Assembly: GCA_963768655.1 (NCBI GenBank)
Contig: CAVYIM010000009.1
Location: forward strand, 231,440 to 295,439
DNA: 64,000 nt
Source: an uncultured Chloroflexia bacterium
Lineage (GTDB): Bacteria > Chloroflexota > Limnocylindria > Limnocylindrales > CSP1-4
Direction: 5' to 3'
Made by a program: the position numbers and the translations under genes. The number at the start of each line of letters is the position of its first letter. The stretch's first letter is position 1. Below the pieces are notes generated by a model. The model did no database searches. It worked only from the letters and a program-made list of their open reading frames with translations, and had not been told where the DNA came from. Positions 7,151-64,000 of this stretch are shown here, one piece after another.

Positions 7151-7250
7151 TCATTCATGCCTCTCGTGTCTCGTCTAGTCGCCTGTGCCCGTGGTGAAAC
7201 CGCGGGAGCCACCGGCCGACCAGACTCGCTCGTCGCCAGCGTCGATCCGC

Positions 7251-7284
7251 AGCTTCCTTCGCCGATGCTGTCGAATTGGTTACG
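7251..7284 (-). promoter_or_regulatory. Copy of shared regulatory motif CGTAA-N6-CGAMAG-N11-(-10)
   Basis: Minus strand CGTAA ccaatt CGACAG catcggcgaag GAAGCT; same spacing as copies at 30674, 32991 and 35301. Confidence 0.6.
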
Positions 7285-7432
7285 GCGCCGAGTTGGCGCG
7301 CGACCCGTTGCTCGTGCGCGCGCGGCCCGCGCGGCCCGCCCGACGGCGCGGCTCGCCCGCACGCGCGGCTATGCGGCAGCGGGCTCGACGGCCGTCAGAG
7401 CCGACCCGCCGAGAACTCGTCTGGGTGGCCGA

Positions 7433-8062
7433 TCAGGTCTGCCGGCCCGCTGGCGTCTCGTCCCGGATCGTGCCGAGAAGATCGAGCGCACGACGGATCC
7501 GCCACTCGTGGCCGGCCCGTTCGCGAGCCGCCGGATCCTCCTGCGACTGGGCATGCTGCTCGAGCTCGAAGGCGTCGGACCAGATCCGCTCCCACGCCGG
7601 GCGATGCTTCGGGGGCACGAGGTCAGTCGCTCTCTCGTGCCAGTGCTCGATACGGCCGAGCAAGTCTTTCGAACGACTGCCGGAGGCGGAAGCCTGGGAG
7701 TCCTTCGGTTCCGTGAGGGCCGCGGCGAGATCGTCCCCGTCCCGCCGAACCCCCTCCAGCCGAGCCGCCACGTCCCCGAAAAGCCCGCTCCGAGCTACTC
7801 GCGGGTCGCGCACCCACCGGCGCAGGATGACTGCCGCGACCAGCATCGCGACGACGCCGACGGCGATGAGCACCGCGGCCGCGACGCCGCCGATCGCCGG
7901 TCGCGCCGCAGCCACAAATCCGGCCACGGCACTCACGAACCCGCCCGAACCGCCGGCAACCAGGATGAACACGAGGGCGACGCCCCGTATCTGGGCGAGC
8001 AGGACGAGAAGGTCCCAGATCGGCCTGACCCTGACCGGTAGTCGCCGTCGCATCGATCCCAT
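7433..8062 (-). CDS. Hypothetical membrane protein
   Basis: Two hydrophobic N-terminal segments followed by a soluble helical domain; no recognised family. Confidence 0.55.
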   Translation of the reverse strand: MGSMRRRLPVRVRPIWDLLVLLAQIRGVALVFILVAGGSGGFVSAVAGFVAAARPAIGGVAAAVLIAVGVVAMLVAAVILRRWVRDPRVARSGLFGDVAARLEGVRRDGDDLAAALTEPKDSQASASGSRSKDLLGRIEHWHERATDLVPPKHRPAWERIWSDAFELEQHAQSQEDPAARERAGHEWRIRRALDLLGTIRDETPAGRQT

Positions 8063-13769: not shown

Positions 13770-15827
13770 TCAGCGCGAGCGGCGGCGCGGGGTCATCTGC
13801 GCAACGTGCGCGTCCGCCCGCCTGGTAAGCCCGTTGTCGGGGCCCAGCGTGCGGCGGAACACCTCGGCTACATAGCGGGCCTGGTTCCGGCCCGCGACCT
13901 TGCGTCCCAGCGCCGCCATGGCGTCGGCGTCGTGGCGCAGGACCTCGAGCGTGTCCGGATCCGCAGGGCCGGGGAACTTGCGGAGCAGAGCGAGCGCATC
14001 GGCATAGCGAGCCCGGGCGCCCGCCGGATCGCCCAGCTTGAGCAGGACGTCGCCGATGTGAGCGTACATGTCCGCCACCTTACGGTCTCGAGGGCCGAGG
14101 TTGCGGAGGTACGCGTCCAGAACTGTCTGGTACATGGCGCGGGCGGCATCGAGCTGGCCCAGCTTCTCCATCACCATGCTCAGGTTGTGGCCCAGGTGAA
14201 GCGTTCGAGGATCGTCCGGTCCGGCCGTGTCACGGCTCTCGGCATGGATCGGGCCGTAGGGTCCGGCGATGCGCTCATAAACGGCTCGAGCGGCCCTCTG
14301 CTCGTCCAGCTTCTCGTGCGTTTCGGCCAGCCAGAGCAGGCACTCGAGCGTGCGCTCGCTCCTGGGCCCCTTGTTTCGTTCGTAGGCGTTGGCCAGCTCC
14401 TGCCAGCGGGCGCGGGCCTTCTCCAGCTCGCCGACCTTGCCCAGCTCCCAGGCGTAGGCCTCCAGGGCCGTCAGGGCATCGTCCCCCTCGGGGCCCACGA
14501 TCCCGACCTGCGTTTCGTACAGGACGCGGTAGGCCTCAAGGGCGGCGGCGTGCGATTCCGCGCGCGCCAGGACGCGGGCAAGGCCCGTGAGAGCCCAGAT
14601 CGTGTCGGGCGCCTCGGGACCGAGGGTCACAAGCCGCCCTTCGGCGAGCTCGCGGTAGCGGGCCGCGGAGTTGGTCAGGTCACCGAGCTGCTCGAGGTTC
14701 CAGGCCAGATCGCCCAGGACCCATTGCGTGGCCACGTGGTCCTGGCCCAGAACCCGCCGCCGCGCTTCCAGCAGCTGCTCGTCGAGCTTGCGCGCCCGGA
14801 CATGCTCGCCGCAACGGCCGAGTGAGTCGGCGAGACCGGCCAGGGCGTCGAGCGTGGCGGTCTCCTCGGGGCCGACCTTGCGCCGCAGACGGCGGTACAG
14901 GTCTTCGTAGACCTGCGCGGCGGCGGCCGGGTCGCCGACGCGGAGCAGCAGCCGGCCGTGCTGGCCGCGGGCGGCGAGGGTCGCCGGGTTGTCCGGCCCC
15001 AGCGTGGAGATCGTGGCGGCGAGAGTCTGCTCCGAAAGCGCACGGCCCGACGTGCTGTGGCCCGCCCCCACCTGCGCCCGCGCCAGGCTGAGCATCGCCT
15101 CGAGAGTATCGGGGTGGGTCGCCCCCAGGAGGCGGCGGCTGCGCTCGACGCGCTCGGCGAGCACTTCGCTGGCGCGGGCGTAGTCCTCGATCGAGATCAG
15201 GATGCTGCCCAGGTTCGCCAGCGTGCGGATGACGGCCAGGCTGTCCGGGCCCAGCGTCTTGCGCTGCACCTCCAGGAGGGCCTCGAAGGTTCCACGTGCC
15301 GAGAGGTCGTCGGCGACGGCTCGTTGCGTCAGGCCCAGGTTGTGCAGGGCGCTGAGGGTGGCCGGATCCTCGGGGCCGAGCGAGTTGCGGCGGCCCGCGA
15401 CCACGCGTTCGTAGATCGGGCGGGCCTCCTCGGGTCTGTCCAGATACGAGAGGGCCACGGCCAGGCCGTGAGCCGCGGAGAGAGTATCGAGGTGGCGCGG
15501 TCCGAAGACACGATCGCAGCGCTCCAGCAGGATGGTGTACTGGTCACGGGCGGTCGAGTAGTCGTCGAGCTCGAGCCCGATAGCCGCGACTCGAGCTTCG
15601 GCCTCGAGCGTCGCCGGGTGCTCGGGACCGAGGAGCTTGCGGCGCGCATCCATGACCTGACGGCAAAGCGAACGCTTGACTCGCAGGTCCGGGAACCCTT
15701 CCAGAAGGACGTCCAGATCCTGTAGAGCCGCAAGGCCGGAGACAGACGGGACGTCCGAAGTGTCGGCGCCCGATGAGCCGCGATCCATCGACAGAGCAGA
15801 TTCTCCCGCCTGAGCCCCCGTGGCCAC
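13770..15827 (-). CDS. Tetratricopeptide repeat protein (kinesin-light-chain-like TPR; start uncertain)
   Basis: Many ~42-aa repeats containing LGPEHPATL / LGPDNPATL / LGPEAPDT motifs. Confidence 0.88.
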   Translation of the reverse strand: MATGAQAGESALSMDRGSSGADTSDVPSVSGLAALQDLDVLLEGFPDLRVKRSLCRQVMDARRKLLGPEHPATLEAEARVAAIGLELDDYSTARDQYTILLERCDRVFGPRHLDTLSAAHGLAVALSYLDRPEEARPIYERVVAGRRNSLGPEDPATLSALHNLGLTQRAVADDLSARGTFEALLEVQRKTLGPDSLAVIRTLANLGSILISIEDYARASEVLAERVERSRRLLGATHPDTLEAMLSLARAQVGAGHSTSGRALSEQTLAATISTLGPDNPATLAARGQHGRLLLRVGDPAAAAQVYEDLYRRLRRKVGPEETATLDALAGLADSLGRCGEHVRARKLDEQLLEARRRVLGQDHVATQWVLGDLAWNLEQLGDLTNSAARYRELAEGRLVTLGPEAPDTIWALTGLARVLARAESHAAALEAYRVLYETQVGIVGPEGDDALTALEAYAWELGKVGELEKARARWQELANAYERNKGPRSERTLECLLWLAETHEKLDEQRAARAVYERIAGPYGPIHAESRDTAGPDDPRTLHLGHNLSMVMEKLGQLDAARAMYQTVLDAYLRNLGPRDRKVADMYAHIGDVLLKLGDPAGARARYADALALLRKFPGPADPDTLEVLRHDADAMAALGRKVAGRNQARYVAEVFRRTLGPDNGLTRRADAHVAQMTPRRRSR

Positions 15828-15914
15828 TCATGATGCCAGGTTCGGCAGAGTTCGAGGGCGCGGCGGTTACGATAACGGAGCGCCCCGAATGGTGCCGTGG
15901 CACCTCGTCGAACG

Positions 15915-16070
15915 CCGGGAGATCGCCTTCAAGTCGGTCGAAATCGAGATTCCTGGTCGGCCTGGGCGTGGACGAGCTGTCGGCGGACGCTGCGTCGCCG
16001 GACGGGATCCGGGCGGCGCTTGCGGGAGTTGCGTCTGCGGAGCTGCGCGGTCTGGCGACCCGGGCTCATG
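15915..16070 (+). pseudogene. Remnant of PTS enzyme I (PtsI/PtsP) C-terminus
   Basis: LVGLGVDELSADAASPDGIRAALAGVASAELRGLATRA resembles the LxGLGxDELS end of PEP-protein phosphotransferases; no upstream domains present. Confidence 0.55.
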
Positions 16071-16113
16071 ATCGCGGCGGAACTGACTGCGCGCGGTCAG
16101 GCGCGCCTGCCCT

Positions 16114-16614
16114 CTACGCAGCGCCGGACATTCCGCCGGGGCTTGCAACCGTGCGCAGCGAGATCGCCAGCTCGCGGTTCACCAGCAACGTGCGGAACCA
16201 CTGCGAAACGGGCTCGCTGCAGAACTCGTACTCGAGCACCGCGTCCGTGATCGCGACCATGGCGGGCCTGCGGTCGAAGCTGCGGACCGGGTTCGCCGTC
16301 GGCGGGGCGTGCATGAAGCCTTCGGCACAGTAGGGGCCGAGCTTGACGGTCACGCCGTTCGGCTTGGTCGCGAGGCGTCGCTTGGGGTCGCCGCGAGGGC
16401 CGCTGGCCACGACGATGTCGAGCTCGTCACGGGAGATATCGAGCTTGTCGAATTCCTGGGTGTGGCCGTCCAGCGTGCTCACCAGGGTGACGTCGTGGAC
16501 GGTGATGGTCTTGCGGCGGTTGAGCAGGTCGGCCAGGCGCGAGTCCTCGAGGTCCACGCGTCCTTCGACGCGACAGTCCTCGGAAAAACCTACGAAGTCG
16601 ATGTCCGTTCCCAT
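16114..16614 (-). CDS. Hypothetical protein
   Basis: Protein-like ORF MGTDIDFVGFSEDCRVEGRV...FRTLLVNRE with GC3 bias; no family recognised. Confidence 0.7.
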   Translation of the reverse strand: MGTDIDFVGFSEDCRVEGRVDLEDSRLADLLNRRKTITVHDVTLVSTLDGHTQEFDKLDISRDELDIVVASGPRGDPKRRLATKPNGVTVKLGPYCAEGFMHAPPTANPVRSFDRRPAMVAITDAVLEYEFCSEPVSQWFRTLLVNRELAISLRTVASPGGMSGAA

Positions 16615-16831
16615 CTCGTCCCCTGATGATTGCTGGGGCATTGAAATGAATTTCCTACGGGTGGGATCGGACGAGTAGTCCCGATGAAGATACGCCGAAC
16701 GGGGAGGTACTCCGTCCGCAGCCCGCAGGATGAAACGCGGCCCGTCAGATGGGACGGACGGGGCCGGCGGCCCGCGTCGGGCCGACTGCGGATGTGGGAG
16801 CCGGACCCCGCCGCGGAGCCGCGCCTTCGGG

Positions 16832-17506
16832 TTACGGCCTCGGGTCAGCGCGACCCGCCGGCGCCTGGCCCGCGCTCGGTCCAGGCTTGCCCGAGGGGCC
16901 AACTCGCCTCTCCTGGCCGGAGAGCAGACGCTGGATGTTGTCGATGTGGAAGAGCCAGATGAGCCCCGGGACGCCGACGCCGTAGACGAAGTAGATCGGT
17001 GGCAGGGGGGCGACCGCGGTCCAGACGACCATGGCGATGCCGCCGATCAGCGTTGCGGTGAGCGACCCCAGTGACGAGATACGCGTGACCGCGATCACGA
17101 TCACGAAGACGGGGAAGATGATCGCCAGAATGACCGGCGCGATGATCAGGGCGCCCCCGGTGGCCGGCGCCACGCCGCGGCCGCCGTGGAAGCCGATGAA
17201 CGGCGAGCGACTGTGGCCGACGACGGCGGCCAGCGCGGCCGCGACCTGCGCCACCTGGTCGCCGCCGATGGCGATTACGAAGAGAACGGCGACGACTGCC
17301 TTGGCCACGTCGAGCAGTCCGGAGATGGCGGCCCAGCGGAAGCCGACCGCGCGCGACACGTTGGCGCCGCCGGTGCGGCCGCTACCCACGGTGCGCGGAT
17401 CGGGCCCGCCGATCAACCGCGGAACGATGATGCCGAAAGGAATGCCCCCAAGGAGATAGCCGGCGACCAGGGCGACGGCCACCCGGACGAGGTCGATGGT
17501 CTGCAT
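16832..17506 (-). CDS. plsY: Glycerol-3-phosphate acyltransferase
   Basis: GYLLGGIPFG, DPRTVGSGRTGGANV, GHSRSPFIGFHGGRGVA, HIDNIQRLLSGQE motifs. Confidence 0.93.
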   Translation of the reverse strand: MQTIDLVRVAVALVAGYLLGGIPFGIIVPRLIGGPDPRTVGSGRTGGANVSRAVGFRWAAISGLLDVAKAVVAVLFVIAIGGDQVAQVAAALAAVVGHSRSPFIGFHGGRGVAPATGGALIIAPVILAIIFPVFVIVIAVTRISSLGSLTATLIGGIAMVVWTAVAPLPPIYFVYGVGVPGLIWLFHIDNIQRLLSGQERRVGPSGKPGPSAGQAPAGRADPRP

Positions 17507-17552
17507 CGCCGCGAAGTATAGGGCGGCGAGTTGATGCCGAATTGGGTCGCCG

Positions 17553-18632
17553 CTAGCCGGCGCCTTCCTCCAGCTCGGCCAGGAAGCGCTCCGGGTTGTG
17601 GCGCAGCCACAACCGGCGGTCCGGGTGAGCGGCCACGTCCTCGACGAGATCCGCGAGGCGGGCGTTCACCGGCGTTGCGACCCCGATCTGTAGCCCGAAG
17701 CGAGCGACCGCGCCGTGCATCCAGGCCACTTCCGTCTGCTCGGGCGACGGCCCCTCGCCGGCCATCTGGACGTGGAGCCGCAGCGAGGGCAGTTTGCCGG
17801 CGCGCGCCCCACCCACGATTCGTCGCAGGATCGGGCGGCCCAGCCAGGACGGAAGCCTGACGGCGCGAGCCAGCCACGGGACGGCCGCGCCGGGCAGCCT
17901 GACCGGCCTGAGCCCGAGCGCGGTCATCACCGCCATTGTCTCCAGGAGCTGCCGCCGCTCGACCTCGAACAGCCGCTTGTCGGCGTAGATCGCGGCCGGA
18001 TCCATGTCGAGGATCGCCCCGGTGGCGTTGGCGATCAGGTTGGTCAGCAGCTTCGACCACTTCATCGCCTTCGCGTCGGACAGTTCCGCGGTGCGCAGGC
18101 CCGCGGGCGCGAAGTCGGCCAGCAGCGGCGCAATGAGCGGTTCCGCCGCAGGATTGGCTGCGGCCAGTGCGATCCCGCCGCGCCCGAGCCAGACGACCTC
18201 GTCCTCCGATACGAGGCGGATCGGGGCAGTCATCGAGCCGGCGATCTGCGGCGCCGACGGCCGGATCTCCGTGGCGGTCTCCTCTGCGCCGATGCCGTTC
18301 TCGACGGTCAGGGTTGGCACGTCCGGCCAGGCCAGCGTGGGCGCCAGCGCCTCGCGCAGGACGGGCATCTTCACCGCCACCAGGATCAGGTCCGGGCGGG
18401 TCGCGTCCTCCGTCCGCATGACCCGATGGACCGGCACGACCGCGCGCGTGCCGTCCGGCCGAACCAGCGTCACCGGCCGCTCCGACGGCCCCTCGAAGAT
18501 TTGGACGAGGGTGACGTCGTAGCCGGCGCTGCCCAGCAGCGTCCCGAGGAACGACCCGACGGCTCCCGCGCCCACGACCAGAACTCGTCGGGGGTTCCTG
18601 CTGTCGCAGTCCGATGGGGGCGCGGTCGGCAT
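17553..18632 (-). CDS. panE: Ketopantoate reductase (PanE/ApbA family)
   Basis: Rossmann VVGAGAVG, ILVAVK, ENGIG, KWSKLLTN, VATPVN. Confidence 0.82.
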   Translation of the reverse strand: MPTAPPSDCDSRNPRRVLVVGAGAVGSFLGTLLGSAGYDVTLVQIFEGPSERPVTLVRPDGTRAVVPVHRVMRTEDATRPDLILVAVKMPVLREALAPTLAWPDVPTLTVENGIGAEETATEIRPSAPQIAGSMTAPIRLVSEDEVVWLGRGGIALAAANPAAEPLIAPLLADFAPAGLRTAELSDAKAMKWSKLLTNLIANATGAILDMDPAAIYADKRLFEVERRQLLETMAVMTALGLRPVRLPGAAVPWLARAVRLPSWLGRPILRRIVGGARAGKLPSLRLHVQMAGEGPSPEQTEVAWMHGAVARFGLQIGVATPVNARLADLVEDVAAHPDRRLWLRHNPERFLAELEEGAG

Positions 18633-20872: not shown

Positions 20873-22014
20873 CTAGTGTCCCGTTGCGCAACTAGCTGAC
20901 TACGTATGGCGCTGGCAGCTACGATTGCGCCATGGCACAACTTCCTGCTCCAGCACTGGCGCTCTCGGAAGCCGACCGCGCAGCCCTGAGGGCGATCGCT
21001 CGCGCGTCGACGAGTCAGCAGCGAGCGGTGACGCGGGCGCGCATCCTCCTTCGGGCGGCCGACGGCATGGCCAACGAACACATCGCGGCCGAGCTCCACG
21101 TCAGTCCGACGACCGTGAAGCTGTGGCGGCGTCGGTATGGTGCCTCGGGCCTTGCCGGTCTGGCCGACGGGCATCGCAGCGGACGTCCGGCTCGCTACAC
21201 CCGAGAGGATCGAGATCGGGTGATCGCCCTGACCCTTGAGCCTCCGCCCGACGGGGTGACGCACTGGAGCGTTCGGCGTCTGGCGGCCCGGCTCACGATG
21301 AGCGAGACGACGGTTTGGCGAATCTGGCGGGAGGCCGGCGTCAAGCCGCATCGGACGGAAACGTTCAAGTTCTCGACCGATCCAGAGCTACAGGCCAAGG
21401 TCCGCGACGTCGTCGGGCTCTATCTGGACCCGCCCGACGGAGCCATCGTGCTCTCTATCGACGAGAAGACCCAGATCCAGGCCCTCGATCGAACAGCGCC
21501 GATGCTGCCGATGAAGCCCGGCCAGATCGAGCGCCACACCCACGACTACAAACGACACGGAACGACCTGCCTGTTCGCGGCCCTCGAGGTCGGCACCGGC
21601 GCGGTCACCGGCCAGACTCGTGCCCGTCACCGAGGCGAGGACTTCCTCGCGTTCCTGCGCCAGGTCGAGGCCGCCTATCCAGAGGGCGAGCTCCACGTTG
21701 TCCTCGACAACGTCAGCACCCACAAGACCCCCGCGGTTCGAGAGTGGCTCGCCGATCGGCCCCGGATCACATTTCACTTCACGCCCACATCCGCATCCTG
21801 GATGAACCAGGTCGAGACGTGGTTCGGCATCCTCTCCCGTCAGGCCATCCGGCGCGGCAGCTTCGGGAGCGTGAAGGAACTCATCGCCAAGATCCGCGCC
21901 TTCATCGACAGCTGGAATGCCGGTTCGACGCCCTTTGTCTGGGTCAAGACTGCCGACGAGATCCTCGCCAAAGCCGTTCGGAAGTCCTCAGCGACTTCCG
22001 AATCGGGACACTAG
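20873..22014. mobile_element. IS630-family insertion sequence with imperfect terminal inverted repeats at a CTAG/TA target
   Basis: Left CTAGTGTCCCGTTGCGCAACTAGCTGA vs right (reverse complement) CTAGTGTCCCGATTCGGAAGTCGCTGA, 22/27 identical; CTAG at both ends. Confidence 0.93.
20932..22014 (+). CDS. IS630 transposase
   Basis: N-terminal HTH; DDE motifs SIDEKTQIQAL, VVLDNVSTHK, SWMNQVETWF. Confidence 0.96.
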   Translation: MAQLPAPALALSEADRAALRAIARASTSQQRAVTRARILLRAADGMANEHIAAELHVSPTTVKLWRRRYGASGLAGLADGHRSGRPARYTREDRDRVIALTLEPPPDGVTHWSVRRLAARLTMSETTVWRIWREAGVKPHRTETFKFSTDPELQAKVRDVVGLYLDPPDGAIVLSIDEKTQIQALDRTAPMLPMKPGQIERHTHDYKRHGTTCLFAALEVGTGAVTGQTRARHRGEDFLAFLRQVEAAYPEGELHVVLDNVSTHKTPAVREWLADRPRITFHFTPTSASWMNQVETWFGILSRQAIRRGSFGSVKELIAKIRAFIDSWNAGSTPFVWVKTADEILAKAVRKSSATSESGH

Positions 22015-44638: not shown

Positions 44639-45481
44639 ACCTGGTGGTCGATCCTCTGGGATATGCGTTCTTCGTTCGGGCGCTCGTGGCGTCTGCCATC
44701 GTGGGGCTGGTCTGCGCCACGGTCGGCAGCTACATGGTCCTGCGCGGGCTGGCCTTCATGGGCGATGCGCTGAGCCACTCTGCGTTCCCGGGAGTGGTGG
44801 TCGCGTACATGGTCAAGGGGCCGTTCTATCTCGGGGCCTCGTTGGCCGCTGTCGGCACCGCGCTGGCGATCGGCTGGGTCACGCGCCAGGGCAAGGTCAA
44901 GAGCGATGCCGCGATCGGCGTCCTGTTCGCGGGGATGTTCGCCCTGGGCGTCTTCCTGTTCAGCCTGATCCCCAACTATGTCGGCGATCTGCTGGGTTTC
45001 CTGTTCGGCGAGGTGCTGGGCATCGGCGTCAGCGACCTGATCTCGTTGACGGTCCTTGGAGTGCTCGTCCTTGGGACGGTGGCGCTCCTCTGGAAGGAAC
45101 TGCTCTACTCCACGTTCGACCCGCTCGGAGCCGCAGCGTCCGGGCTGCCGGTGAGCCGGCTGGACTACCTGCTGCTGGCGCTGATCGCCCTCACGATCGT
45201 CATCAGCCTCCAGGCCGTTGGGATCGTCCTCGTCGTGGCGATGCTGGTCACCCCGGCGGCGACGGCGCAGGCTGCTCTCACGGAGCTTCGGCCGCCTCGT
45301 CCTGATCGCGGCCACGATCGGAGTCGTGAGCCCGATCGTCGGGCTGTACGGCAGCTACTGGCTCAACTCCGCCAGCGGCGCCACGGTCGTCCTGGTGGAG
45401 AGCGGCGTGTTTGTCGCGACCCTCGCGGCGACCACGCTTCTGGAGCGGTTCGCCCACCGGACCAAGCAGGCGGTGGCATAG
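44635..45481 (+). CDS. znuB: Zn/Mn ABC transporter permease (frameshift near 45270-45290)
   Basis: AFMGDALSHSAFPG, FLFGEVLG, QAVGIVLVVAMLVTPAATA; C-terminus continues in another frame (SGATVVL). Confidence 0.88.
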
Positions 45482-55832: not shown

Positions 55833-55908
55833 GCGCCCGTAGCTCAGTGGATAGAGCATCTGACTTCGGATCAGAGGGTCGGGGGTTCGAATCCCTCCGG
55901 GCGCGCCA
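55833..55908 (+). tRNA. tRNA-Arg, anticodon UCG
   Basis: Acceptor GCGCCCG/CGGGCGC plus GCCA; D arm TAGCTCAGTGGATAGAGC; anticodon arm TCTGA-CTTCGGA-TCAGA; T arm GGGGG-TTCGAAT-CCCTC; 76 nt. Confidence 0.97.
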
Positions 55909-55909
55909 C
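55892..55909 (+). repeat. att site, tRNA-proximal junction
   Basis: TCCCTCCGGGCGCGCCAC, identical to 63277-63294. Confidence 0.92.
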
Positions 55910-55910
55910 A

Positions 55911-57541
55911 CTAACCAGCGAGCGTAGCGGTCGCTGATGCGATCAGCGGCAGGTAGTCAGGGTGAGCCAGCCTCGCCTTCACGATCTCGTCGTCCCGGAC
56001 CTTGACTTCCGCGAACAGGTTCCGGCGATCTCGGCGCGCTCGGTAGGCGTGGCCTTGGACCAAAGCGTTCCGAGCTCTTGCAGCAGGCGCGCAGCGCGGA
56101 CCAGCACCGCCTCGCTGTAGGACGGCTGTGCGGCTCCTCCGTTGAGGGACGCGGTCAGTGCCCGCTTTCGGCCCACGTACTCGTCGCGGGTGATGTCGGC
56201 CTGCAGGAAGAGTTCCCGAAGGTTCGCCAGCTGCCGCTCGATCCGGGCCGTGTCGACAGTGGGACGTTGGATCTGAGCTTCGCGACGCTGGAGCCGCTCG
56301 ATGTCAGCCCGCCAGTCTGCCGGGATAACGAGGCTGGCCAGCCACGTCGCCAACCTGGTCCTCGAGTTGTGCCGAGCGAACGGCTCGCTGGTCGCAGGCG
56401 TGCCGCTCGCGCTGCGACGTGCACGCCATGTACAACACCGCTGGCGGCCGCTGCTCGACCGGTGGGCTTCACCGTAGAGGTTCGCCCCGCAACGGTCGCA
56501 GACGGCAAGCCGGCGGAACGGGTAGACGTTGTGAAGCTTGCCGCCGTTTGAGCCGCGGAACGACCGCGCCCGCACAGCCTTGATGGCCTGCCAGAGGCTC
56601 TCGTTCCAGATCGGTTCTTGCTCGCCCTGTTTCCACTCGGTGTCGTGGAAGTTGTGAGCCTTGCGCTCCTTGTCCGGCCGAGTGTGCCAGCCGACCTGGC
56701 CGACATATACGGGGTTGGAGACGATCACCCGGATCGAACTGCCCGAGAACGGTTCGCCCAGAGCGTTTCGATAACCCAGGAGGTTCATATGCGCGGCCAG
56801 CGGCCGAAACCCAGGATCCCGGTCGCGTAGGTTTCGCCGATGAGGCGGACAAGGTCGGCTCGCGTATATGTCGAGCCGAACCCGATGCGAGGCTGAGGCT
56901 CCGTGTCGAGGACGAGCTTGCCGGTCTCGACCAACTCCGAGCCGCCCTTGACCTTGTTGTAGACCGTCTCGTAGCTCATCCGATAGCCGATCGGGACGGT
57001 CCCGGACCACTTGCCGAGTTCGTATCGCTTCACCCGATACGCCTTCTGGACTTTCCCGCCGTGGAGAGTCAGGAACTCGTGCGAGAGAGCGGAGTGGACA
57101 GCCTGGCCAACCTGCTGGTCTGCGCTGCTGAGATCGTTCGTCTCGATGTAGACGACGATCACGCCGGCCTCGTGGAGCCGCTGCTCGTAGATCGCCGCCT
57201 CGCGTCGCTCTCGGGCGAACCGGCTCGTGTCGTAGACCAGGAGAACGTCGAACGCGCCGGCTTCCGCGTCGGCGATCATTCGCTGGAACTGCGGCCGGCG
57301 CGACGCCTTCGAGCCGCTGACGAAGTCCGTGTAGAAGGCGCCGTCGAAACCCTCTGCGCCCGGGTCCGCGTTCTCCACCTCGGCAAGCTCCAGGCCCCAC
57401 CGCGATGCGTATGCGTAGGCCGCGCTGCGTTGCACGATCGGCCCGGAGTTCTCACCCTGCTTCTTGGTCGACTCGCGGACCAGGCCCGCGCGCAACCAGG
57501 CCTCGAAGCTGCTCTGGGGCTCGCGGGAGCTGTCGCCTCAA
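55911..57541 (-). CDS. Large serine recombinase (resolvase, recombinase, Zn-ribbon, coiled coil) with several frameshifts in this sequence
   Basis: TTG start MRRQLPRAPEQLRGLVARG/LVRESTKKQ (catalytic Ser), RRPQFQRMI...DVLLVYDTSRFAR, PIGY, NPVYVG, CDRCG...YMAC; pieces lie in different frames. Confidence 0.88.
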
Positions 57542-57807
57542 TGAGGGCCTCCTGCCCTCGCGCCGTTGCTTGCCGCCGGCGAGGGCCTGCTAGGGCGGGA
57601 CCGACTCGATGGTCGCCGCCGTTGCCTCTCGCCACGATAGACCAAAGCGGGCGGGGTTGCCGCTACCGAAGCCGATGCGTGCCCCCGAGACACGGCTACC
57701 GGGCCATCTTCGGGAAGCCCAACGCTCTCTTGGGCCGCCTCCCGGCTGGCAACTGCGAGTGCGACTCGGGCGAGCACCGACATGAGTGGAAGCGCTTGCT
57801 CTCTCAT
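57538..57807 (-). CDS. 89-aa ORF between repSA and int (candidate directionality factor)
   Basis: ATGA overlap with the repSA stop and TTGA overlap with the integrase start. Confidence 0.5.
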   Translation of the reverse strand: MREQALPLMSVLARVALAVASREAAQESVGLPEDGPVAVSRGHASASVAATPPALVYRGERQRRRPSSRSRPSRPSPAASNGARAGGPH

Positions 57808-59155
57808 CCGGACAGGGCCGGCGAACGGGCGCTTCCGCGGTTACCCGCTGCGACGGCCCGCTCAGCGGGACTCAGACCTGCCCCGGCGAAGTGGAAGTCT
57901 CGCCGGATTACGACCTGGCCACCGGCGGCACGAGCGCGAATCCGGCTGAGCCACGGATCCGCATTCGCTCGAAACTCCGCCCGGACGGCGCGCAGCGCGG
58001 CGAAGGTGACCGAGTAGCGACGAGCCTTGGTCAGGAAGTGGCCACGAAAGCCCAGGTTGTGAGCCCAGCGTGGATTGAGCCTCCAGGCCGATCGCATCAG
58101 AGCGCGAGCATGAGGAGAGAGGTCGGCTCGTTCGATCACGCCCTCTACTCGGATCCGTCGATCAAGACCACCGGCAATCTGTGCGTCCTTGGTGGCGTAC
58201 TTGGCGAGGTAGCCCGCTACGCCGGCTCCGTGCCCGTCGCCTGCTTGCGGGCTCGCAGTTATCGGTCTCGTGTCGATCTGCTCACCCCAGCGGATCACCA
58301 TCTCACGTCCACCGGGTCCCGCCACCGTGACCGCTACGCGCGCCGCGGTGCGGGCGACGGCCTCCGCTAGACGCTGCGCCGTCGCTCCGCCCGCCGGCGC
58401 GGTGTCGGGACCGCCGGGTCCGTCGAGTCGGATGACCGCATGGACGTGGACCGATCCACGGGCCTGGAACTCGGCGACCTTGGCATAGGCGACACGGACC
58501 TGGCGTCGCAGGGCTGCCACGCTCAGGCCGCCCAAGGCCGCGAGCTCGCGAGGCAGGTACGTGATCGTCCGCCGCCACAGGGCTCCGAGGTTCGCGTTCC
58601 ATAGCGCCGCGGCTTCGTAGCCGTAGCAGTCGGGGCAGATGGCCTGGCCGACGAGCGGATCGCCATCTTCATGGCGAGCCGTGCAGCTTGTGGGAACGCC
58701 GTGCAAGCAAGCGCCGTCTACGCCGGGATGACACGGGCGGACCTGATCCTCACTCACGACTCGCCGATGGACTGCTCCGAACGAGGGAGCGGTGAACGTC
58801 GCGAAGACGACCGGGTGCGAGGCCACGGATGTCGAGACACTTTGGCCTCACTTCCCTCAAGCCCCGCGGCTACCAGGAAGTAGGCGTCGCGGCGATACCG
58901 CTCCGAGCAAGGCGGGCACCGCGACTCGCGTCGGTTGCCACAGGCGACCAGGACGAAGCCCGGAGCCTCGGACCTGGTCGATCGACGAGCGACAACCTGA
59001 CCAGTCGAAGCCAGCGCCGCGACCGACTCGCCCTCCAGGCGGATCGGCGAGGTACAACCGCCGGTTCGGCGGATCAGCTCGACGAGGGCAGGTGCGCCGG
59101 CGCCGTAGCGGGCAGCGAGCACCGCCAGCGACGCCGGCTCATGCACGAGCACCAC
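57804..59155 (-). CDS. repSA: RepSA-type rolling-circle replication initiator (frameshift near 58830-58860)
   Basis: GGCTSPIRL, CGNRRESRCPPCSERY, FATFTAPSFGAVH, KVAEFQARG, HUH motif VHVHAVIRLDG, YLAKYATK, WAHNLGFRGHFLTKARRYS. Confidence 0.9.
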
Positions 59156-59162
59156 CCGATCC

Positions 59163-59588
59163 TCAGGCGCTCTGCTCGGTGCGATGGAGCGTCTGCGGGA
59201 TCTGGGCCTTCACCGTCGCTCCACGAACCGCAGTCGCGCGGAACGACCACGCGAGGCGAGGCCGGGAGCCCGACGTGTCCACGTAACCGGTCGCTGTTAG
59301 GCCCTCGAAGGCAACGGCTGGGAAGGGCGAACCAGCCGGCGCCTGGGGAAGGGTCGGCGGATTGCGGGACGCGATCTTGACCTTGACGACCTTGTTCCGA
59401 GCCTCCGGATCGGCGTCGAAGACCGAGATCGCCCAGAGCGGCAGACCCGAGTCGCGATCGTGCGCCTGGACCCGCTGCTCGGGTGTCGAGGCATCGAAGT
59501 CGATGACCTGCTCTACGCCTCCGACCGCGTATGCGCCGGCTGGGAACAGGAGCTCGTGGGTGATGGGGATGTTTCTGCCGAGTGCCAT
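59163..59588 (-). CDS. Pra-like protein (actinomycete element replication/integration/excision activator family)
   Basis: AAGGAG RBS; FPAGAYAVG.VEQVIDFD...DRDSGLPLW...DADPEAR...VKVKIAS...FEGLTA..Y...RLAWSFRA, recognised from AICE proteins. Confidence 0.7.
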   Translation of the reverse strand: MALGRNIPITHELLFPAGAYAVGGVEQVIDFDASTPEQRVQAHDRDSGLPLWAISVFDADPEARNKVVKVKIASRNPPTLPQAPAGSPFPAVAFEGLTATGYVDTSGSRPRLAWSFRATAVRGATVKAQIPQTLHRTEQSA

Positions 59589-60116
59589 GGATCTACTCCT
59601 TGTCTGATTTCGAACAGCACGAAAGAACCGACGCGCTGCGCACAGCTATCGCCGGATAGAGCTCGCCTAAGCGGCTCGAAAGAGTGGGGGCGGGCGCTCT
59701 GTCTTGGTCCGAAATGTCTAGCCGGACCTGCGCCGGTCGCCACCAAAGACGCTAGGCCGACCGACTCCGAGAGTCAAGGCTTCTGCGTACCATCCGGCGT
59801 ACCATCGGCGGATTTGGCCGCTGTCCGAGCCGAAATCGAGCCTGGGAGAGCTGCCGGCGGCCACGAAAACTGCCCGCTGGCGGACACAAACCGGGACCGA
59901 GCCTGGATCCCGGCGAGACGGTCAGGGCGGGCTCTACCTGACTTCGCTCGATCGCTGCGACCGGCGAGTATGGCCCGATGCACGGGGTCATCGGGCGGGT
60001 TCGCCTGTTATCGCCGCGATCCGCTCAACGAGGCCGACAACGGGGCAGCCCTTCGACTTGTTACGACTTTCTCTACGAGATCAAGTGAGCGCCAGGTGAG
60101 CGGCGCCCGGTAGGGT

Positions 60117-60365
60117 GTGAAGCGCAAGGCACTCTTCGCGACGATGGCAGATGCACTGAATGGTTCAGGGCTCGCTGTAGGTCCCGCGAACTCGGGTACT
60201 GTCGGTTTGAGCTATCCACAGAGCCATCCCCGAACGTGGACAGGAGTTGTGGAAGGGTGCCTAGCCGCCGGACCTTCGGTGTCGCACACTAACGCTTGGG
60301 CTGGGCCTTTGGTTGCTCTCGCGGTGGCGACGCTGCGGAACGAGTCCGCGCGGAGGCTGAGTTAG
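60117..60365 (+). CDS. Hypothetical small protein
   Basis: 82-aa ORF immediately upstream of the methyltransferase; no family recognised. Confidence 0.35.
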   Translation: MKRKALFATMADALNGSGLAVGPANSGTVGLSYPQSHPRTWTGVVEGCLAAGPSVSHTNAWAGPLVALAVATLRNESARRLS

Positions 60366-60386
60366 AATAGAACAAGGGTTCTGCCA

Positions 60387-61847
60387 ATGGAGGTCTCTCA
60401 CGTGCGGGAAATGCCATCGCCGCCCGACTTGGACAGTAACGCGAACCAACGCCAGGCGGTCGGCGACGACGACGACGACGGCGGCGGCCCGACGTCACAG
60501 GTAACCGTCCGCCGCCACAAAGTGCGAGCCACCGCCGAGACACTTTGGTCTCCTGAAGCGGTCGGCATCCCCACAAGACTCCGTGTTCGGCGCGGAGACG
60601 GACTCCGGTCGATCTCGCTGTTCACAGGCGCCGGTGGTTTGGATCTCGGGTTGTCCAGAGCTGGAGGCGGAGAGATCCAGTTCGGCGCGTGGGTGGAAAA
60701 GGACGAGGACTCCCGCGAGACGATTGCCCTGAACCACCCAACCGGGCGAGACGCGATCTTCGGCGACATCACCAAAGTCCACCCGACGCAGCTCATGCAG
60801 GCCGCGGGCTTGTCTAGAGGCCAAGCCTTCTTGGTGGCGGGAGGGCCGCCGTGCCAAGCGTTCAGCACTGCAGGCTTACGTCAGTCGATACACGAGCCGC
60901 GCGGACAGGTAGTCGATCGCTATTTCGACATCATCCGCGAGGTTAGGCCTCGGTTCTTTGTGTTTGAGAATGTCCGCGGCTTGGCATCCGTCGCGATCAA
61001 ACATCGCCGCTATGTGGACAGGATCGCCAGCGAGAAGGAGAACCCCGGCGAGCCGGACCTTGAGGCAGACCAACGGCTTGGCTCGGTCTTTGACCAGGTT
61101 TCTGGCCCAACATGAAGAGCCTGGGTTACGAGGTCGTCTTTGCACTCCTGAATGCCGCCGATTATGGCACGGCCCAAGTTAGGCATAGGTTCGTCTTCTT
61201 GGGTAGTCGAGATCACGAGTTTGGCTCGGGTACGTTTCGCAAGATGACGGGGCAGACCATGACCCTGCAGGACCTGCTCCCTCCAACTCACCACCGGCTG
61301 GCGCCCTACAGCCCAATAGAGCCGTGGCGCGTTCTACGAGATGCCATTGGTGGTATGCCAGAGCCAGACCCGAGGGAGACTTTCACCTACAGTCCGGAGC
61401 GCATCAATGTGTGGAAACGAATTCCAGCTGGACGCTACTGGACGTATGTCCGCGACAACCCGGTGTTGTTCCCTGAGGGGCTCGAAGCTCTACTGAAGGG
61501 CGCGTTCTCATCTGGGGGCGGTAAGGTTGGCTTCTGGCGGAGGCTCTCTTGGGACAAGCCATCGCCGACCCTCCCGACACAACCACAACATCGGCGACAG
61601 GGTTGTGCCACCCCGATGTCGAAAGGCCCCTATCAGTGCCGAGCATGCGGCGCTCCAGGATTTCCCAGAGGGCTACCGGTTCGCTGGCAACAAGGCGAGC
61701 AAGTACAAGCAGATCGGAAATGCTGTGCCGGTGCGACTCGGGGAGGCCTTAGGAAACCTGCTACTCTCCGTCGCGAGCGGCGGGGCAGTAAGGGGCACCA
61801 TTGAGGAAGAGGAAGACCCGCTACCAGTGAGAGTGGTATCAGCTTGA
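60387..61847 (+). CDS. C5 DNA cytosine methyltransferase (frameshifts near 61100 and 61590-61640; start uncertain)
   Basis: Motif I SLFTGAGGLD, IV GGPPCQAFS, VI FENVRG, VII/VIII LNAADYG.AQ.R.R, WRRLSWDKPSPT, X YKQIGNAVP. Confidence 0.93.
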
Positions 61848-62683
61848 CCGTTCCGCACGAGGTTGTGTGCCAACACATTGACCAGGCAGTGAAGGTTGCC
61901 GTTCAGCGTGTCACCGACCGTGCTGAGGAACTGTTTACGTCCGAAGTTGCGAGTGCCGCCAATGGCGGAGCATCTCCGTTTCAGAAGCTTCTGCTGCCCG
62001 AAGCGAAGATCTTCTCGTCATTTGAGCGATCTCTCAGTGCCTCGTTAGGAAAGGCGTTCGACTACATCGGCGCCGACATCGCGCGAGCTACATACGGTAA
62101 TGGCCAGCACGACTACTCGTACCACGGCTCGATTTCCCCGGAAACGCTCGGCGCGATTGAGGTGATTGTCGCGCGATACAAAGCGAAGGGGACACTGCAC
62201 AGGATGCCCGACACGGTCGCCGAGTTAGCGGAACTCGCGCCGATTATTGAGGCCAGCGAGCCGACAGTGAGTCGCACGATCAAGAACGACGTCTATTTTG
62301 TTGACCACGACCAGATCAAGAATTTCCTTGAGATCAAGACGGTTCAACCGAACTACGACACTTGCGACAAGATGAAGACTCGTATCCTGACAATCCATGC
62401 GATGCATCATGGCGGCGCCGACAAGATTTGTGCGCTGGTCGTCTTTCCTCACAACCCCAACGGCCTTGAGGGCATCTATGCTTGGCCGCCGCTCCAGTAC
62501 TTCCTGGATCCACAACACGATTGGAAGGCTCGAGGGCAAGCCCTGATGGGGCCTGGTCTGTGGAACTTCCTCGGCGACTCGGACGGTACATACGATGAAT
62601 TGATGGACTGCTTCTACGAGGTGTCCATCAAACGAAAAGACGAGATGTTAAGCTCTGCTAAGGCTGACCGTGGAGTAGCGTGA
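61844..62683 (+). CDS. Type II restriction endonuclease (TdeIII-like, PD-(D/E)xK)
   Basis: SSFERSLSASLG, NDVYF...FLEIKTVQPN, LWNFLG...TYDEL; coupled to the MTase. Confidence 0.78.
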   Translation: MTVPHEVVCQHIDQAVKVAVQRVTDRAEELFTSEVASAANGGASPFQKLLLPEAKIFSSFERSLSASLGKAFDYIGADIARATYGNGQHDYSYHGSISPETLGAIEVIVARYKAKGTLHRMPDTVAELAELAPIIEASEPTVSRTIKNDVYFVDHDQIKNFLEIKTVQPNYDTCDKMKTRILTIHAMHHGGADKICALVVFPHNPNGLEGIYAWPPLQYFLDPQHDWKARGQALMGPGLWNFLGDSDGTYDELMDCFYEVSIKRKDEMLSSAKADRGVA

Positions 62684-63090
62684 AGAACCTAGCGATCACG
62701 TGCCCGCCCGACTCCTGGCCCGCTGGCCTGGACGGATGCGTCTGCCTGGGGATTTCGGAGGCCCGAGGGGCGGACGCTCTCTGGCTCGTCTTCCGAGGTT
62801 CCGACCGCACGGTTACCTCGGTGTCGGGTTTCCTTTTCGAGGGAGTCGAAGTGCCCCCGGACATCACAGCGCTGGAGCCCGCGGTCGTTGCTTCCGGCCC
62901 AAGGAGTCTCTGGGTACTGATCGCAGAGGACAGAACTGCCTTCTACAAGGCCGTTGCCGGCGGGAAGCTGCATATCGGAGGCGACTTTCGGGAGTTTGGT
63001 CGTCTGGCCAGAAGGCTGATACGCCTTACCGAGCAGTTGGAGTTGTGGACGCAGCTCGACGCCATCCTTGATTACGTCCAATCCTCGTAG
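62680..63090 (+). CDS. Hypothetical protein, weak SCP2-like C-terminal pattern
   Basis: GTGA overlap with the REase; LWVLIA...FYKAVAGGKLHIGGD. Confidence 0.6.
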   Translation: MKNLAITCPPDSWPAGLDGCVCLGISEARGADALWLVFRGSDRTVTSVSGFLFEGVEVPPDITALEPAVVASGPRSLWVLIAEDRTAFYKAVAGGKLHIGGDFREFGRLARRLIRLTEQLELWTQLDAILDYVQSS

Positions 63091-63161
63091 ACCTGAGGGA
63101 GCGGCTGCGCCTACGAACCAGACGTCCGATGAGCCACAGGCGAGAGCTAACGCGTCATGCT

Positions 63162-63194
63162 GAGCGCACCGAGCGCACCGAGCGCACCGAGCGC
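63162..63194. repeat. 9-bp tandem repeat GAGCGCACC (about 3.7 copies)
   Basis: Direct reading of the sequence; just inside the right end of the element. Confidence 0.85.
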
Positions 63195-63204
63195 CGTTGA
63201 TGTC

Positions 63205-63276
63205 CTAGGCGGCCTGAAGCGCCTCGACCAGCTCGTCCAGGCCCTCGATCGCGAAGGTTGGTGGCGTGCGTTTGTT
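63205..63276 (-). other. Orphan coding tail NKRTPPTFAIEGLDELVEALQAA* abutting the distal att site
   Basis: 24 codons, strong GC3 in the distal part, no start codon of its own, in frame with the att core (VARPEG). Confidence 0.65.
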
Positions 63277-63294
63277 TCCCTCCGGGCGCGCCAC
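63277..63294 (+). repeat. att site, distal junction
   Basis: Identical to the tRNA 3' end; part of an inverted repeat GTGGCGTGC-N16-GCGCGCCAC (63261-63294). Confidence 0.92.
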
Positions 63295-63386
63295 TCATTC
63301 GGGTAGTGACTGAAAACCCAAAGGCATAGGCGCCGGGTGAGCGCATCCATGTGAGATCCGGTCGTCAGTATCCGGCGAGTGCGTGG

Positions 63387-64000
63387 CTACCAAGGGTCCA
63401 CGACCCCTCGAAGGTCGAAGCCGAGGCTGGTGTAGGCACCGGCGCGCTTGGAATGCATCCGCGCCAGGACGGGATCCTGTAGTCCACGTAGTCATGCACC
63501 TCGACCCTCGTCTTGCCCTCGACCGGCCTGAGCACGCGGCCGACGTACTGGACGATTTGGCCCCGGAAGGCGATCGGAAACGCTATAAACAGCGTGTCCA
63601 GCGGCGGACAATCGAAACCCTCGCCCAGGAGACTGCCGGTGGCCACGAGCACTACGCCATCGCCGGGCTGCGTCGCCGCAAGTCGATCGACGATCGCTCG
63701 TCGCTCTTTTCTGCCCATGCCTCCGACCAGGACGTCTGGGCGAACTCCCATTTCCTCAAGTCGATCTCGGATAAAGCCCACATGCTGCTTCCATTGAGAG
63801 AGAACGAGGCAGTTGCGGCCCGACTGCACGGCCGCAGCGATGTCGCCACAGACCTGGCGAGTCCTAGCGTCATCCTCTACCAGCGAGCGGAAGACGGCCT
63901 GGATGGTGGGAGGCACCTCGCTTGTGCCGGTGACTGGATTTCCGTGGTTGGTTGGATGGACGACTAGCGTGCGCACCACGCCCGCCGTCGCGCCGGGATC
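63387..64000 (-). CDS. SF2 (DEAD/DEAH-box) helicase C-terminal part (truncated by window; frameshift near 63480)
   Basis: VLVATGSLLGEGFDCPPLDTL, QYVGRVLR, VHDYVD, then ARMHSKRAGAYTSLGF in another frame. Confidence 0.85.

Follow-up and report, generated by a model that had tools for sequence, protein, structure and literature searches.

Small integrative elements of the pSAM2 type are known from actinomycetes. Passages of Ghinet 2011 (PMC3218068) define the actinomycete integrative and conjugative element (AICE) operationally by modules for integration (int), replication (rep) and transfer (tra) which occur together, in Actinobacteria. RepSA/Pra modules count as typical of such conjugative elements, which depend on a single FtsK-like translocase for their transfer. 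Here we describe such a module in a different setting. The DNA analysed, termed the window, comprises 64,000 nucleotides of an uncultured Chloroflexia bacterium (assembly GCA_963768655.1, contig CAVYIM010000009.1, positions 231,440 to 295,439). It is the final 64 kb of a 295-kb contig (C9), i.e., the end of the window is the end of the contig. The source genome (G000), a metagenome-assembled genome (MAG), has 3.37 Mb in 9 contigs, 69% GC, 88.6% completeness and 0.61% contamination. In the window a 7.4-kb element lies between 18-bp repeats at the 3' end of a tRNA-Arg-TCG gene. We consider it, with a probability of roughly 70%, to be the integrated form of a small element, integrative and self-replicating, which derives from the pSAM2/AICE lineage and possesses neither a translocase nor any other transfer gene.

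The tRNA-Arg(TCG) gene, the integration target, is located at 55833-55908 on the plus strand (ARAGORN; Rfam RF00005, 72.8 bits); its last 17 nt derive from the attachment (att) core. A repeat search located this core, TCCCTCCGGGCGCGCCAC, as an exact 18-nt direct repeat at 55892-55909 (attL) and again at 63277-63294 (attR). The minus strand codes for a large serine integrase, the replication initiator RepSA and a Pra-like protein, the plus strand for a 5-methylcytosine methylase, a TdeIII-type endonuclease and an unknown open reading frame (ORF). An earlier interpretation of the bare DNA letters, henceforth the sequence-only reading, had given the order pra-like, repSA, small ORF, int, with methylase and endonuclease following, all within 7.4 kb between att repeats. 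This order stands with the exception of the small ORF. The gene families were confirmed by Pfam; what had escaped attention is that integrase, RepSA and methylase are frame-broken, with four, one and three breaks, respectively. The statement that genes for FtsK/TraB, a relaxase and a capsid are missing is borne out, as Pfam produced no match to FtsK, relaxase or capsid families among the 15 ORFs of the window. The designation as a compact AICE-like element with a serine integrase likewise agrees with the presence of RepSA and a probable Pra homologue and the lack of FtsK/TraB. Two congeners (L152 and L154) display the empty site: they keep the upstream flank (75-81%), the tRNA-Arg and the island of a TOTE conflict system on the right, without the element. 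In two of four peat-metagenome runs contigs join 55891 to 63277 across the 18-nt core, a weak indication with only 30 nt on the shorter side.

RepSA, the rolling-circle replication initiator, is encoded at 57804-59155 on the minus strand. It matches PF20199 across two frames, at profile positions 92-434 and 5-88 of 438 (E 5.6e-99 and 7.8e-26). The intact RepSA of G008, a genome of the same genus, has a 468-aa frame which covers PF20199 positions 5-434 (E 1.9e-131); the two frame pieces of the window copy are 97% and 92% identical to it. In a search of plasmid records RepSA matched 24 entries, all from actinomycetes, with 39-47% identity. The protein contains HVH and YxxK, which we take to be motifs of the HUH type.

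The 141-aa Pra-like protein (59163-59588, minus strand) is the probable activator of a pra-repSA-int operon. The ESM Atlas groups it, at scores of 0.96-0.97, with clusters which bear the name 'plasmid replication, integration and excision activator'. In two metagenome contigs (L129, L147) homologues of 41-47% identity are situated between GntR and TraB-like genes upstream of RepSA, which is the gene order of pSAM2. The match to the SCO3933_fam model is weak and below the cut-off (E 4.7e-4); all three Pra-like proteins tested from the genus, the window copy included, score 17-20 bits against a cut-off of 80. The AlphaFold model is all-beta with a pLDDT of 82. Its best fold matches are single-strand-binding proteins with an oligonucleotide/oligosaccharide-binding (OB) fold and two OB-fold proteins encoded by integrative and conjugative elements (ICEs), with Z scores of 7.2-5.7 (7.2-6.0 for the single-strand-binding type), a middling range; a Foldseek search of the PDB with this model gave no match at E <= 0.001. 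Taken together, the protein is a probable Pra homologue with a predicted OB-fold. A GntR domain, as in KorSA, is absent from every ORF of the element.

Upstream of the Pra-like gene is a non-coding leader/control region (59589-60085, minus strand) which is common to the element family. It has 76-82% nucleotide identity to two other elements of G000, and its column conservation of 0.6-0.85 is about as strong as that of coding DNA, without 3-nt periodicity. Two GGTACGC direct repeats (59785-59791 and 59797-59803) are positioned upstream of a promoter-like pair, TTGACT-17 nt-TAGCGT, picked by eye only. A hairpin is predicted at 59974-59995 (DNA fold z -2.24); RNAalifold returned a weak consensus of -7.3 kcal/mol from an alignment which mixed two leader types. 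We infer from these features that the region may combine operator, promoter and leader with a candidate origin. A promoter in the conserved leader would drive pra-repSA-int, with the OB-fold protein Pra as activator, and RepSA would nick an origin within the same non-coding region and start rolling-circle copying of a circular form. Another short backbone segment (63118-63194) is common to all three RepSA elements of G000; it contains 3.6 copies of a 9-nt repeat, GAGCGCACC, at 63162-63194.

The spacer of ~310 nt between RepSA and the integrase (57496-57803) supports no gene. The small ORF in question (57538-57807), considered as a gene for an excisionase (Xis) or recombination directionality factor (RDF), was discarded: it has no family match, and the GC content at its codon positions (0.76/0.68/0.66) shows no rise at the third position.

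The element is not a one-off deletion derivative of a TraB-bearing neighbour, a point in favour of the sequence-only reading. RepSA is present in 26 of the 51 genomes of the genus. The FtsK_SpoIIIE domain (PF01580) was detected in all 51, almost always once and chiefly in a chromosomal ftsK of ~790 aa; in the 26 RepSA genomes no PF01580 match was found on the same contig within ~76 kb of a RepSA match. A tblastn search with the TraSA-like protein of an actinomycete plasmid points in the same direction. Of the distant metagenome loci with enough flank 19 of 35 yielded Tra immediately upstream of RepSA, which serves as the positive control for the translocase search; of the close loci none of 4 did so, and of the mid-distance loci none of 6. 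Outside the genus RepSA was absent from 144 genomes of other genera of the family and, in a sample of 401 genomes (217 genera) drawn across the phylum, from all 394 which do not belong to the genus.

The sequence-only reading had proposed, as a check, a survey of loci with RepSA, Pra and a serine recombinase but without FtsK. Twenty-four RepSA loci were typed, namely 20 fetched loci, the two other copies of G000, G008 and the window. Pra stands directly before RepSA in 22, an integrase follows RepSA in all 24, and all three genes are found in 22. Tyrosine integrases account for 15 loci, with tRNA genes for Cys, Ser, Leu, Lys and Thr as targets, and serine integrases for nine: seven belong to lineage B, which uses tRNA-Pro(CGG) where the target is visible, and two to lineage A (window and G008), which uses tRNA-Arg(TCG). 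Where both ends were found the elements measure 5.7-11.4 kb. The family is common in this Chloroflexota genus, and it swaps integrases (tyrosine and two serine lineages) as well as cargo.

In L007 (G000 C3:502000-521999) positions 14200-18355 hold a full-length serine lineage B recombinase in an attP-like configuration, followed by a Rep_1 gene typical of rolling-circle-replicating (RCR) plasmids. Both adjoin a tyrosine-integrase RepSA element at tRNA-Lys, the RepSA of which is frame-split, too. Two replicon types appear to stack here. Further, DDE_3 (IS630-like) transposases with HTH_32/HTH_23 were observed in the window at 20896-22011 and in L007 at 6915-8018, the latter beside the C3 element.

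Judged by the record titles of relatives, the host is a member of the Chloroflexota and not an actinomycete. A locus of the same genus which is 100% identical to the G008 integrase is labelled uncultured Chloroflexia MAG; further relatives are labelled Chloroflexota or Candidatus Limnocylindrales, and Limnocylindrales are placed in Chloroflexota by NCBI. The non-actinomycete host surmised from the letters is supported by these labels. Could the contig be a mis-binned or chimeric actinomycete fragment, so that the host is an artefact? The nearest named relatives of RepSA are all from actinomycetes and the genome is a MAG. Nevertheless, this explanation is hardly credible. More than 231 kb of a 295-kb contig, the GC of which is host-like, precede the element, congeners have an orthologous upstream flank and tRNA, RepSA elements lie inside contigs of 0.35-1.4 Mb elsewhere in the genus, and contamination amounts to 0.61%. 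Long reads which span both host genes and the element speak against it, too.

The copy in G008 is intact. Its backbone, i.e., integrase, RepSA, Pra-like protein and leader, is 96.6% identical to that of the window over 4221 nt, and ~90 nt beside the far att core are common to both; the cargo is different. For RepSA and the Pra-like protein an identity of at least 99% stands against 79% for the host ftsK genes of the two genomes, and the flanks are unmatched. A backbone identity of 96.6% against 79% in ftsK, combined with unmatched flanks, points to a recent movement of the element between species.

How does the element integrate? The integrase gene (55911-57495, minus strand) adjoins attL. Its product, a large serine integrase of lineage A ('Ser-A'), has the Pfam domains Resolvase (PF00239) and Recombinase (PF07508) and belongs to the integrases of PHROG 95. 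Intact orthologues comprise 537-569 aa; the G008 frame has 569 aa with Resolvase, Recombinase and Zn_ribbon_recom domains, and in the window the zinc-ribbon region is out of frame. In a search of 301 genomes of the order the N-terminus was 99% identical to the G008 orthologue. The integrase ORFs of G008 and G291, one of them a 55%-identical integrase from another genus, read through the att core and end in ...ARPEGFEPPT, which is tRNA-encoded. A 75%-identical integrase in another MAG overlaps a tRNA-Arg(TCG) gene likewise, with no RepSA nearby. In the window the P arm of attR (63205-63294, minus strand), in frame with the core, encodes VARPEG-NKRTPPTFAIEGLDELVEALQAA followed by a stop; it is 89% identical in G008 and has the same stop. 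Similarly, the integrated elements of lineage B have the last ~44 integrase codons at their opposite end (L064, L066).

The att repeats of serine integrases measure 17-18 nt as compared to 45-51 nt for tyrosine integrases. Both serine cores start right after the T-loop, and identity stops where the tRNA ends on its 3' side. This is what one would predict if crossover took place close to the left edge of the core and the tRNA were rebuilt by the element. The sequences indicate that the serine integrases of this family target tRNA 3' ends and that their genes span the attachment site. Recombination of attL with attR by the enzyme would take place close to the left end of the core. Upon integration 15-16 nt carried by the element would rebuild the tRNA, and upon excision the integrase gene would regain its own 3' tail in the circle. 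A related arrangement exists in the myxophage Mx8, in which attP lies within the 3' end of the integrase gene intP and integration alters the C-terminus of the protein. In Mx8 the Int protein is a phage-encoded tyrosine recombinase, whereas here a serine integrase of a plasmid-like element is involved.

The insertion site in G008 deserves a separate comment. This copy (L023 12402-12480) adjoins only the 3' half of a tRNA-Arg with a 15-nt internal duplication (TCAGAGGGTCGGGGG twice), a full tRNA is absent, and beyond the tRNA half is a gene for a HipA kinase. The arrangement suggests a tandem or rearranged insertion site.

The coding regions of the window copy are interrupted by at least eight frame breaks. 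The integrase has four frame-breaking indels, at ~56812 (-1), 56441-56462 (+8 net), 56349 (+1) and 56021-56025 (-1), which distribute it over at least three frames. RepSA is split into two frames by a 1-nt deletion at 58840. The methylase is divided into three or four frame pieces with breaks at ~61097-61110, 61590 and 61640, two of which resemble 1-nt deletions in short runs. Are these errors or decay? From the four peat-metagenome runs short-read contigs match 58188-59979 at ~99.9% identity. Three of them span 58807-58916, the interval with the RepSA break, and each holds one extra base; the RepSA break is probably an assembly error. We somewhat favour the view that all eight breaks arose as consensus errors in an error-prone assembly and not by decay, because the RepSA base is present in near-identical contigs, because the integrase differs from that of G008 by 85 synonymous and only 16 non-synonymous changes, and because an open endonuclease next to a dead methylase would kill the cell. 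Mixed strains and the proximity of the contig end have perhaps raised the density of errors.

Two genes outside the element are also broken. The chromosomal ftsK of G000 (C7:169445-171815) changes frame at an A run near 171100 and so falls into two pieces, most simply by an assembly indel; consistent with this, several genomes of the genus which consist of few contigs have low completeness and split RepSA genes, too. In the window the gene of an ABC-3 (ZnuB-like) permease (44640-45481) is frame-shifted near 45280, the sole broken host gene among 48 ORFs checked. The assembly therefore does make indel errors, yet their density is far higher in the element.

The alternative is that this copy is a dead, fixed remnant, in which integrase, RepSA and methylase are true pseudogenes, excision and replication have ceased, and the endonuclease has either been inactivated by missense changes or kept an open frame by chance. 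At least eight breaks in 7.4 kb, as compared to about one in 55 kb of host DNA, speak for it. So do the complex 8-nt indel at 56441-56462, which is unlike a typical homopolymer error, and contigs of two runs (X2 and X3) which cover 56812 without the inserted G. On the other hand, contigs ~99.9% identical to the window contradict the RepSA break, the changes in the integrase are predominantly synonymous, the assembly has broken its own ftsK, and a cell would hardly tolerate an open endonuclease frame next to a broken methylase; by our own estimate the chance of the endonuclease staying open at the local break rate is ~1 in 5. On balance we regard decay as unlikely, albeit as the strongest competitor of the assembly-error view.

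The cargo of the element is a restriction-modification (R-M) system. The methylase is a type II C5-cytosine DNA methylase (60387-61847, plus strand). Its three ORFs cover positions 2-128, 130-193 and 280-320 of the PF00145 profile; PADLOC assigns it to MTase_II (PDLC03378) at 4-133, 137-272 and 285-331. The endonuclease (61844-62683, plus strand) is of the TdeIII family (RE_TdeIII), type II, with a full-length open frame (PF09520, E 9.3e-35, positions 3-241 of 242; PADLOC REase_II). The two genes are adjacent, as in a type II R-M system. With the endonuclease frame open, and the methylase in at least three frames possibly due to assembly error, the pair may be active. Such a cargo would provide defence and/or post-segregational stability. 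The endonuclease stop overlaps by 4 nt with a 136-aa ORF (62680-63090, plus strand), for which no match was found in Pfam, NCBIfam, PHROGs and PADLOC. In run X2 one metagenome contig joins 60085 to 63227 and skips the 3.1-kb R-M cargo; this junction points to a natural variant which is cargo-less or differently loaded.

In relatives the cargo is different. The G008 element carries an M23 peptidase, DUF2752 and unknown ORFs. Elsewhere AbiE, HEPN and HNH proteins, an extracytoplasmic function (ECF) sigma factor, peptidases, insertion sequences and many unknown ORFs are encountered, and serine lineage B elements carry a NUDIX gene with HD and HTH-DUF5919 genes. The NUDIX gene, we presume, is reminiscent of Pif of pSAM2. 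Among 27 cargo ORFs of relatives PADLOC recognised only AbiEi/AbiEii (L057) and one HNH protein (L050). Therefore, defence is not a family trait; the term 'defence element' from the sequence-only reading applies to this copy with its R-M cargo, not to the family. A Walker A motif is absent from 17 of 18 large cargo ORFs of relatives. The exception, a 271-aa ORF in L007, has no family match. A P-loop translocase is not evident in these sequences.

Without transfer genes of its own, movement of the element between cells would need something outside it. A first possibility is that it is a phage satellite or a phage-inducible island, packaged by a helper phage; 'satellite' had indeed been suggested from the letters. 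It is small, tRNA-integrated and self-replicating, has defence cargo and lacks transfer genes. Yet no family for packaging, capsid, terminase or helper interference was found in the 15 ORFs of the window and 77 cargo ORFs of relatives with Pfam, or in 9 window ORFs with PHROGs. Further, a scan of IMG/VR with RepSA had no match, and the backbone is a pSAM2-type plasmid module. A satellite is very improbable.

Secondly, the element may resemble integrative and mobilizable elements (IMEs), in that its rolling-circle Rep doubles as a relaxase and that it uses conjugation machinery whose genes lie outside it. ICEs are known to mobilise RCR plasmids in a Rep-dependent manner, and a recent spread between species without own transfer genes would be accommodated. 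RepSA may then act as a surrogate relaxase; families of MOB-type relaxases had no match in the ORFs of the window, nor was an oriT identifiable there. Against this, G000 (88.6% complete) has no match to AAA_10/VirB4-like, T4SS-DNA_transf or TraG-D_C families, its sole FtsK is the chromosomal one, and essentially a single FtsK-domain gene exists per genome in the genus. We rate this route as quite unlikely on present evidence.

Several points weigh against the favoured reading of an integrated, self-replicating pSAM2-type element with errors of assembly. At least eight breaks in a 7.4-kb element against one among 48 host ORFs over 55 kb would also fit real decay. In the four runs the integrase region is covered only by alleles which have diverged by 2-8%, and the cargo at 60137-63007 is without cover in any of them, i.e., the methylase breaks rest on the assembly. 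The phylum of the host is based on submitters' labels of relatives and on grouping rather than on a marker-gene tree. Pra was identified by synteny, by language-model similarity and by matches which stay below the threshold (20 bits vs a cut-off of 80). The positions of origin, promoter and crossover are all placed by inference: a sigma-70 promoter scan of 59500-60450 found none, and the best dyad symmetry in attP, 15/30 centred after core base 2, is not significant after 19 offsets. Finally, a look for circular junctions, also advocated in the sequence-only reading, detected no back-joining joint in the four runs, for which contigs were available and in which rare forms are dropped, and none of 80 metagenome loci has the terminal repeats of an extrachromosomal form. 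Overall, the observations of the sequence-only reading were largely right and its interpretation partly right.

The DNA to the right of attR is not host backbone. At 63295-64000 (minus strand) a second mobile island starts outside of the element, a fact not seen in the sequence-only reading. It begins with a helicase C-terminus (Helicase_C), is cut by the contig end and belongs to a TOTE conflict system with an AEP-TOTE primase, a ResIII helicase and an AAA_14-DUF4143 ATPase. Between species the island has an identity of 91-96%, as compared to ~79% for their core genes. A second TOTE copy on contig C8 of G000 is interrupted by a group II intron; at C8:12827-13533 it is 94% identical to window 63295-64000. 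The same region (L161, C8:1-20000) has att cores at 2947, 12809 and 19145 in tandem, each with a 95-nt arm of the integrase tail. Serine lineage A integrase, RepSA and Pra are all missing from the islands between these junctions. The TOTE island is one of them; another carries a Gp49 toxin, a glyoxalase, a sensor kinase, an IS110 element and an N6/N4 methylase. Possibly they are hitchhikers without an integrase of their own which make use of that of serine lineage A.

Combining both lines one may speculate that Pra-RepSA-Int units are autonomous integrative rolling-circle plasmids which spread among species of the Chloroflexota without a translocase of their own, and that their tRNA-targeting serine integrase also moves integrase-less defence islands, TOTE and others, in which the same att arm and core recur in tandem arrays. 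An example of a route would be that RepSA acts as its own relaxase and that the OB-fold protein Pra coats the exported or imported single strand. We give this combined proposal rather poor odds. If true, a small element would be the driver of a defence-island hotspot.

What is the significance of these findings? A module of actinomycete conjugative elements has colonised one genus of another phylum, where it occurs with three types of integrase, with many different cargos and in several copies per genome, yet without a translocase. One is led to ask by which route such minimal replicons move. Defence cargo can accumulate at one tRNA-Arg locus, where the element brings an R-M system and has a TOTE island as its neighbour. 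Large serine integrases which target tRNA genes and have short, defined att sites are of practical interest as integration tools.

Finally, the element is compared with known systems. With respect to the operational definition of an AICE, the window has a recombinase beside an att site and a replication module; an FtsK/SpoIIIE Tra protein is absent and the host is not actinobacterial. In the portions of PMC2440964 and PMC3218068 which describe pSAM2 of S. ambofaciens and pSAM2-type AICEs, the common properties are RepSA, a regulator which here is probably of the Pra type, an att-adjacent integrase, the tRNA 3' end and a size of ~10 kb. Unlike these, the window is without TraSA/FtsK, KorSA (GntR) and Spd, Pra abuts repSA, the integrase is of the serine and not the tyrosine type, and the host is from the Chloroflexota. 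Serine recombinases as such are no novelty: passages of PMC3218068 report them in 19 of 144 AICEs and describe eight Mycobacterium AICEs whose serine recombinases have one tRNA-Leu gene as target, a targeting termed rare there. As in the window, a large serine recombinase targets a tRNA gene in these Mycobacterium elements; as far as that text describes them, the differences are the targets here, tRNA-Arg(TCG) and, in the sister lineage, tRNA-Pro(CGG), the lack of Tra, and an integrase ORF which passes through the att core.

A similar combination is the 'AICE remnant SCO3937' of S. coelicolor, for which the relevant section of PMC8584621 lists SCO3932 (KorSA-like), SCO3933 (Pra-like), SCO3934 (TraSA-like), SCO3936 (RepSA-like) and SCO3937, a serine integrase. 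It shares with the window a pSAM2-type module joined to a serine integrase, and the Pra-like protein of the window weakly matches the SCO3933 model. In contrast to the window, this remnant, as listed there, keeps TraSA and KorSA homologues; the integrases are comparable at the family level only. The 11.6-kb actinomycete plasmid pNL15-2K-Cir (L049) has a RepSA of 41% identity and a serine 'recombinase family protein', too. Unlike the window it possesses GntR and FtsK/SpoIIIE genes, and no similarity was detectable between its recombinase and small ORFs and those described here.

Elements with a recombinase and without an own conjugation module have been described as well, namely the tra- or rep-less Frankia elements in the text of PMC3218068 and the IMEs in parts of Guedon 2017 (PMC5704250). 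Compared to those accounts, the tra-less state here is family-wide, the replication module is kept, and neither a relaxase nor an oriT is identifiable. According to passages in PMC3218068 loci with two or fewer modules were excluded as remnants, and tra-less Frankia elements were considered as remnants or mobilizable. We found no paper which links RepSA/pSAM2-type elements with Chloroflexota; the supplementary tables of PMC3218068 may list more tra-less or tRNA-targeting cases. As far as that source goes, serine-integrase AICEs and tra-less relatives, 'remnant or mobilizable', are thus already known in actinomycetes. New here are the phylum, the family-wide absence of Tra and KorSA with the replication genes kept, and the signs of recent spread.

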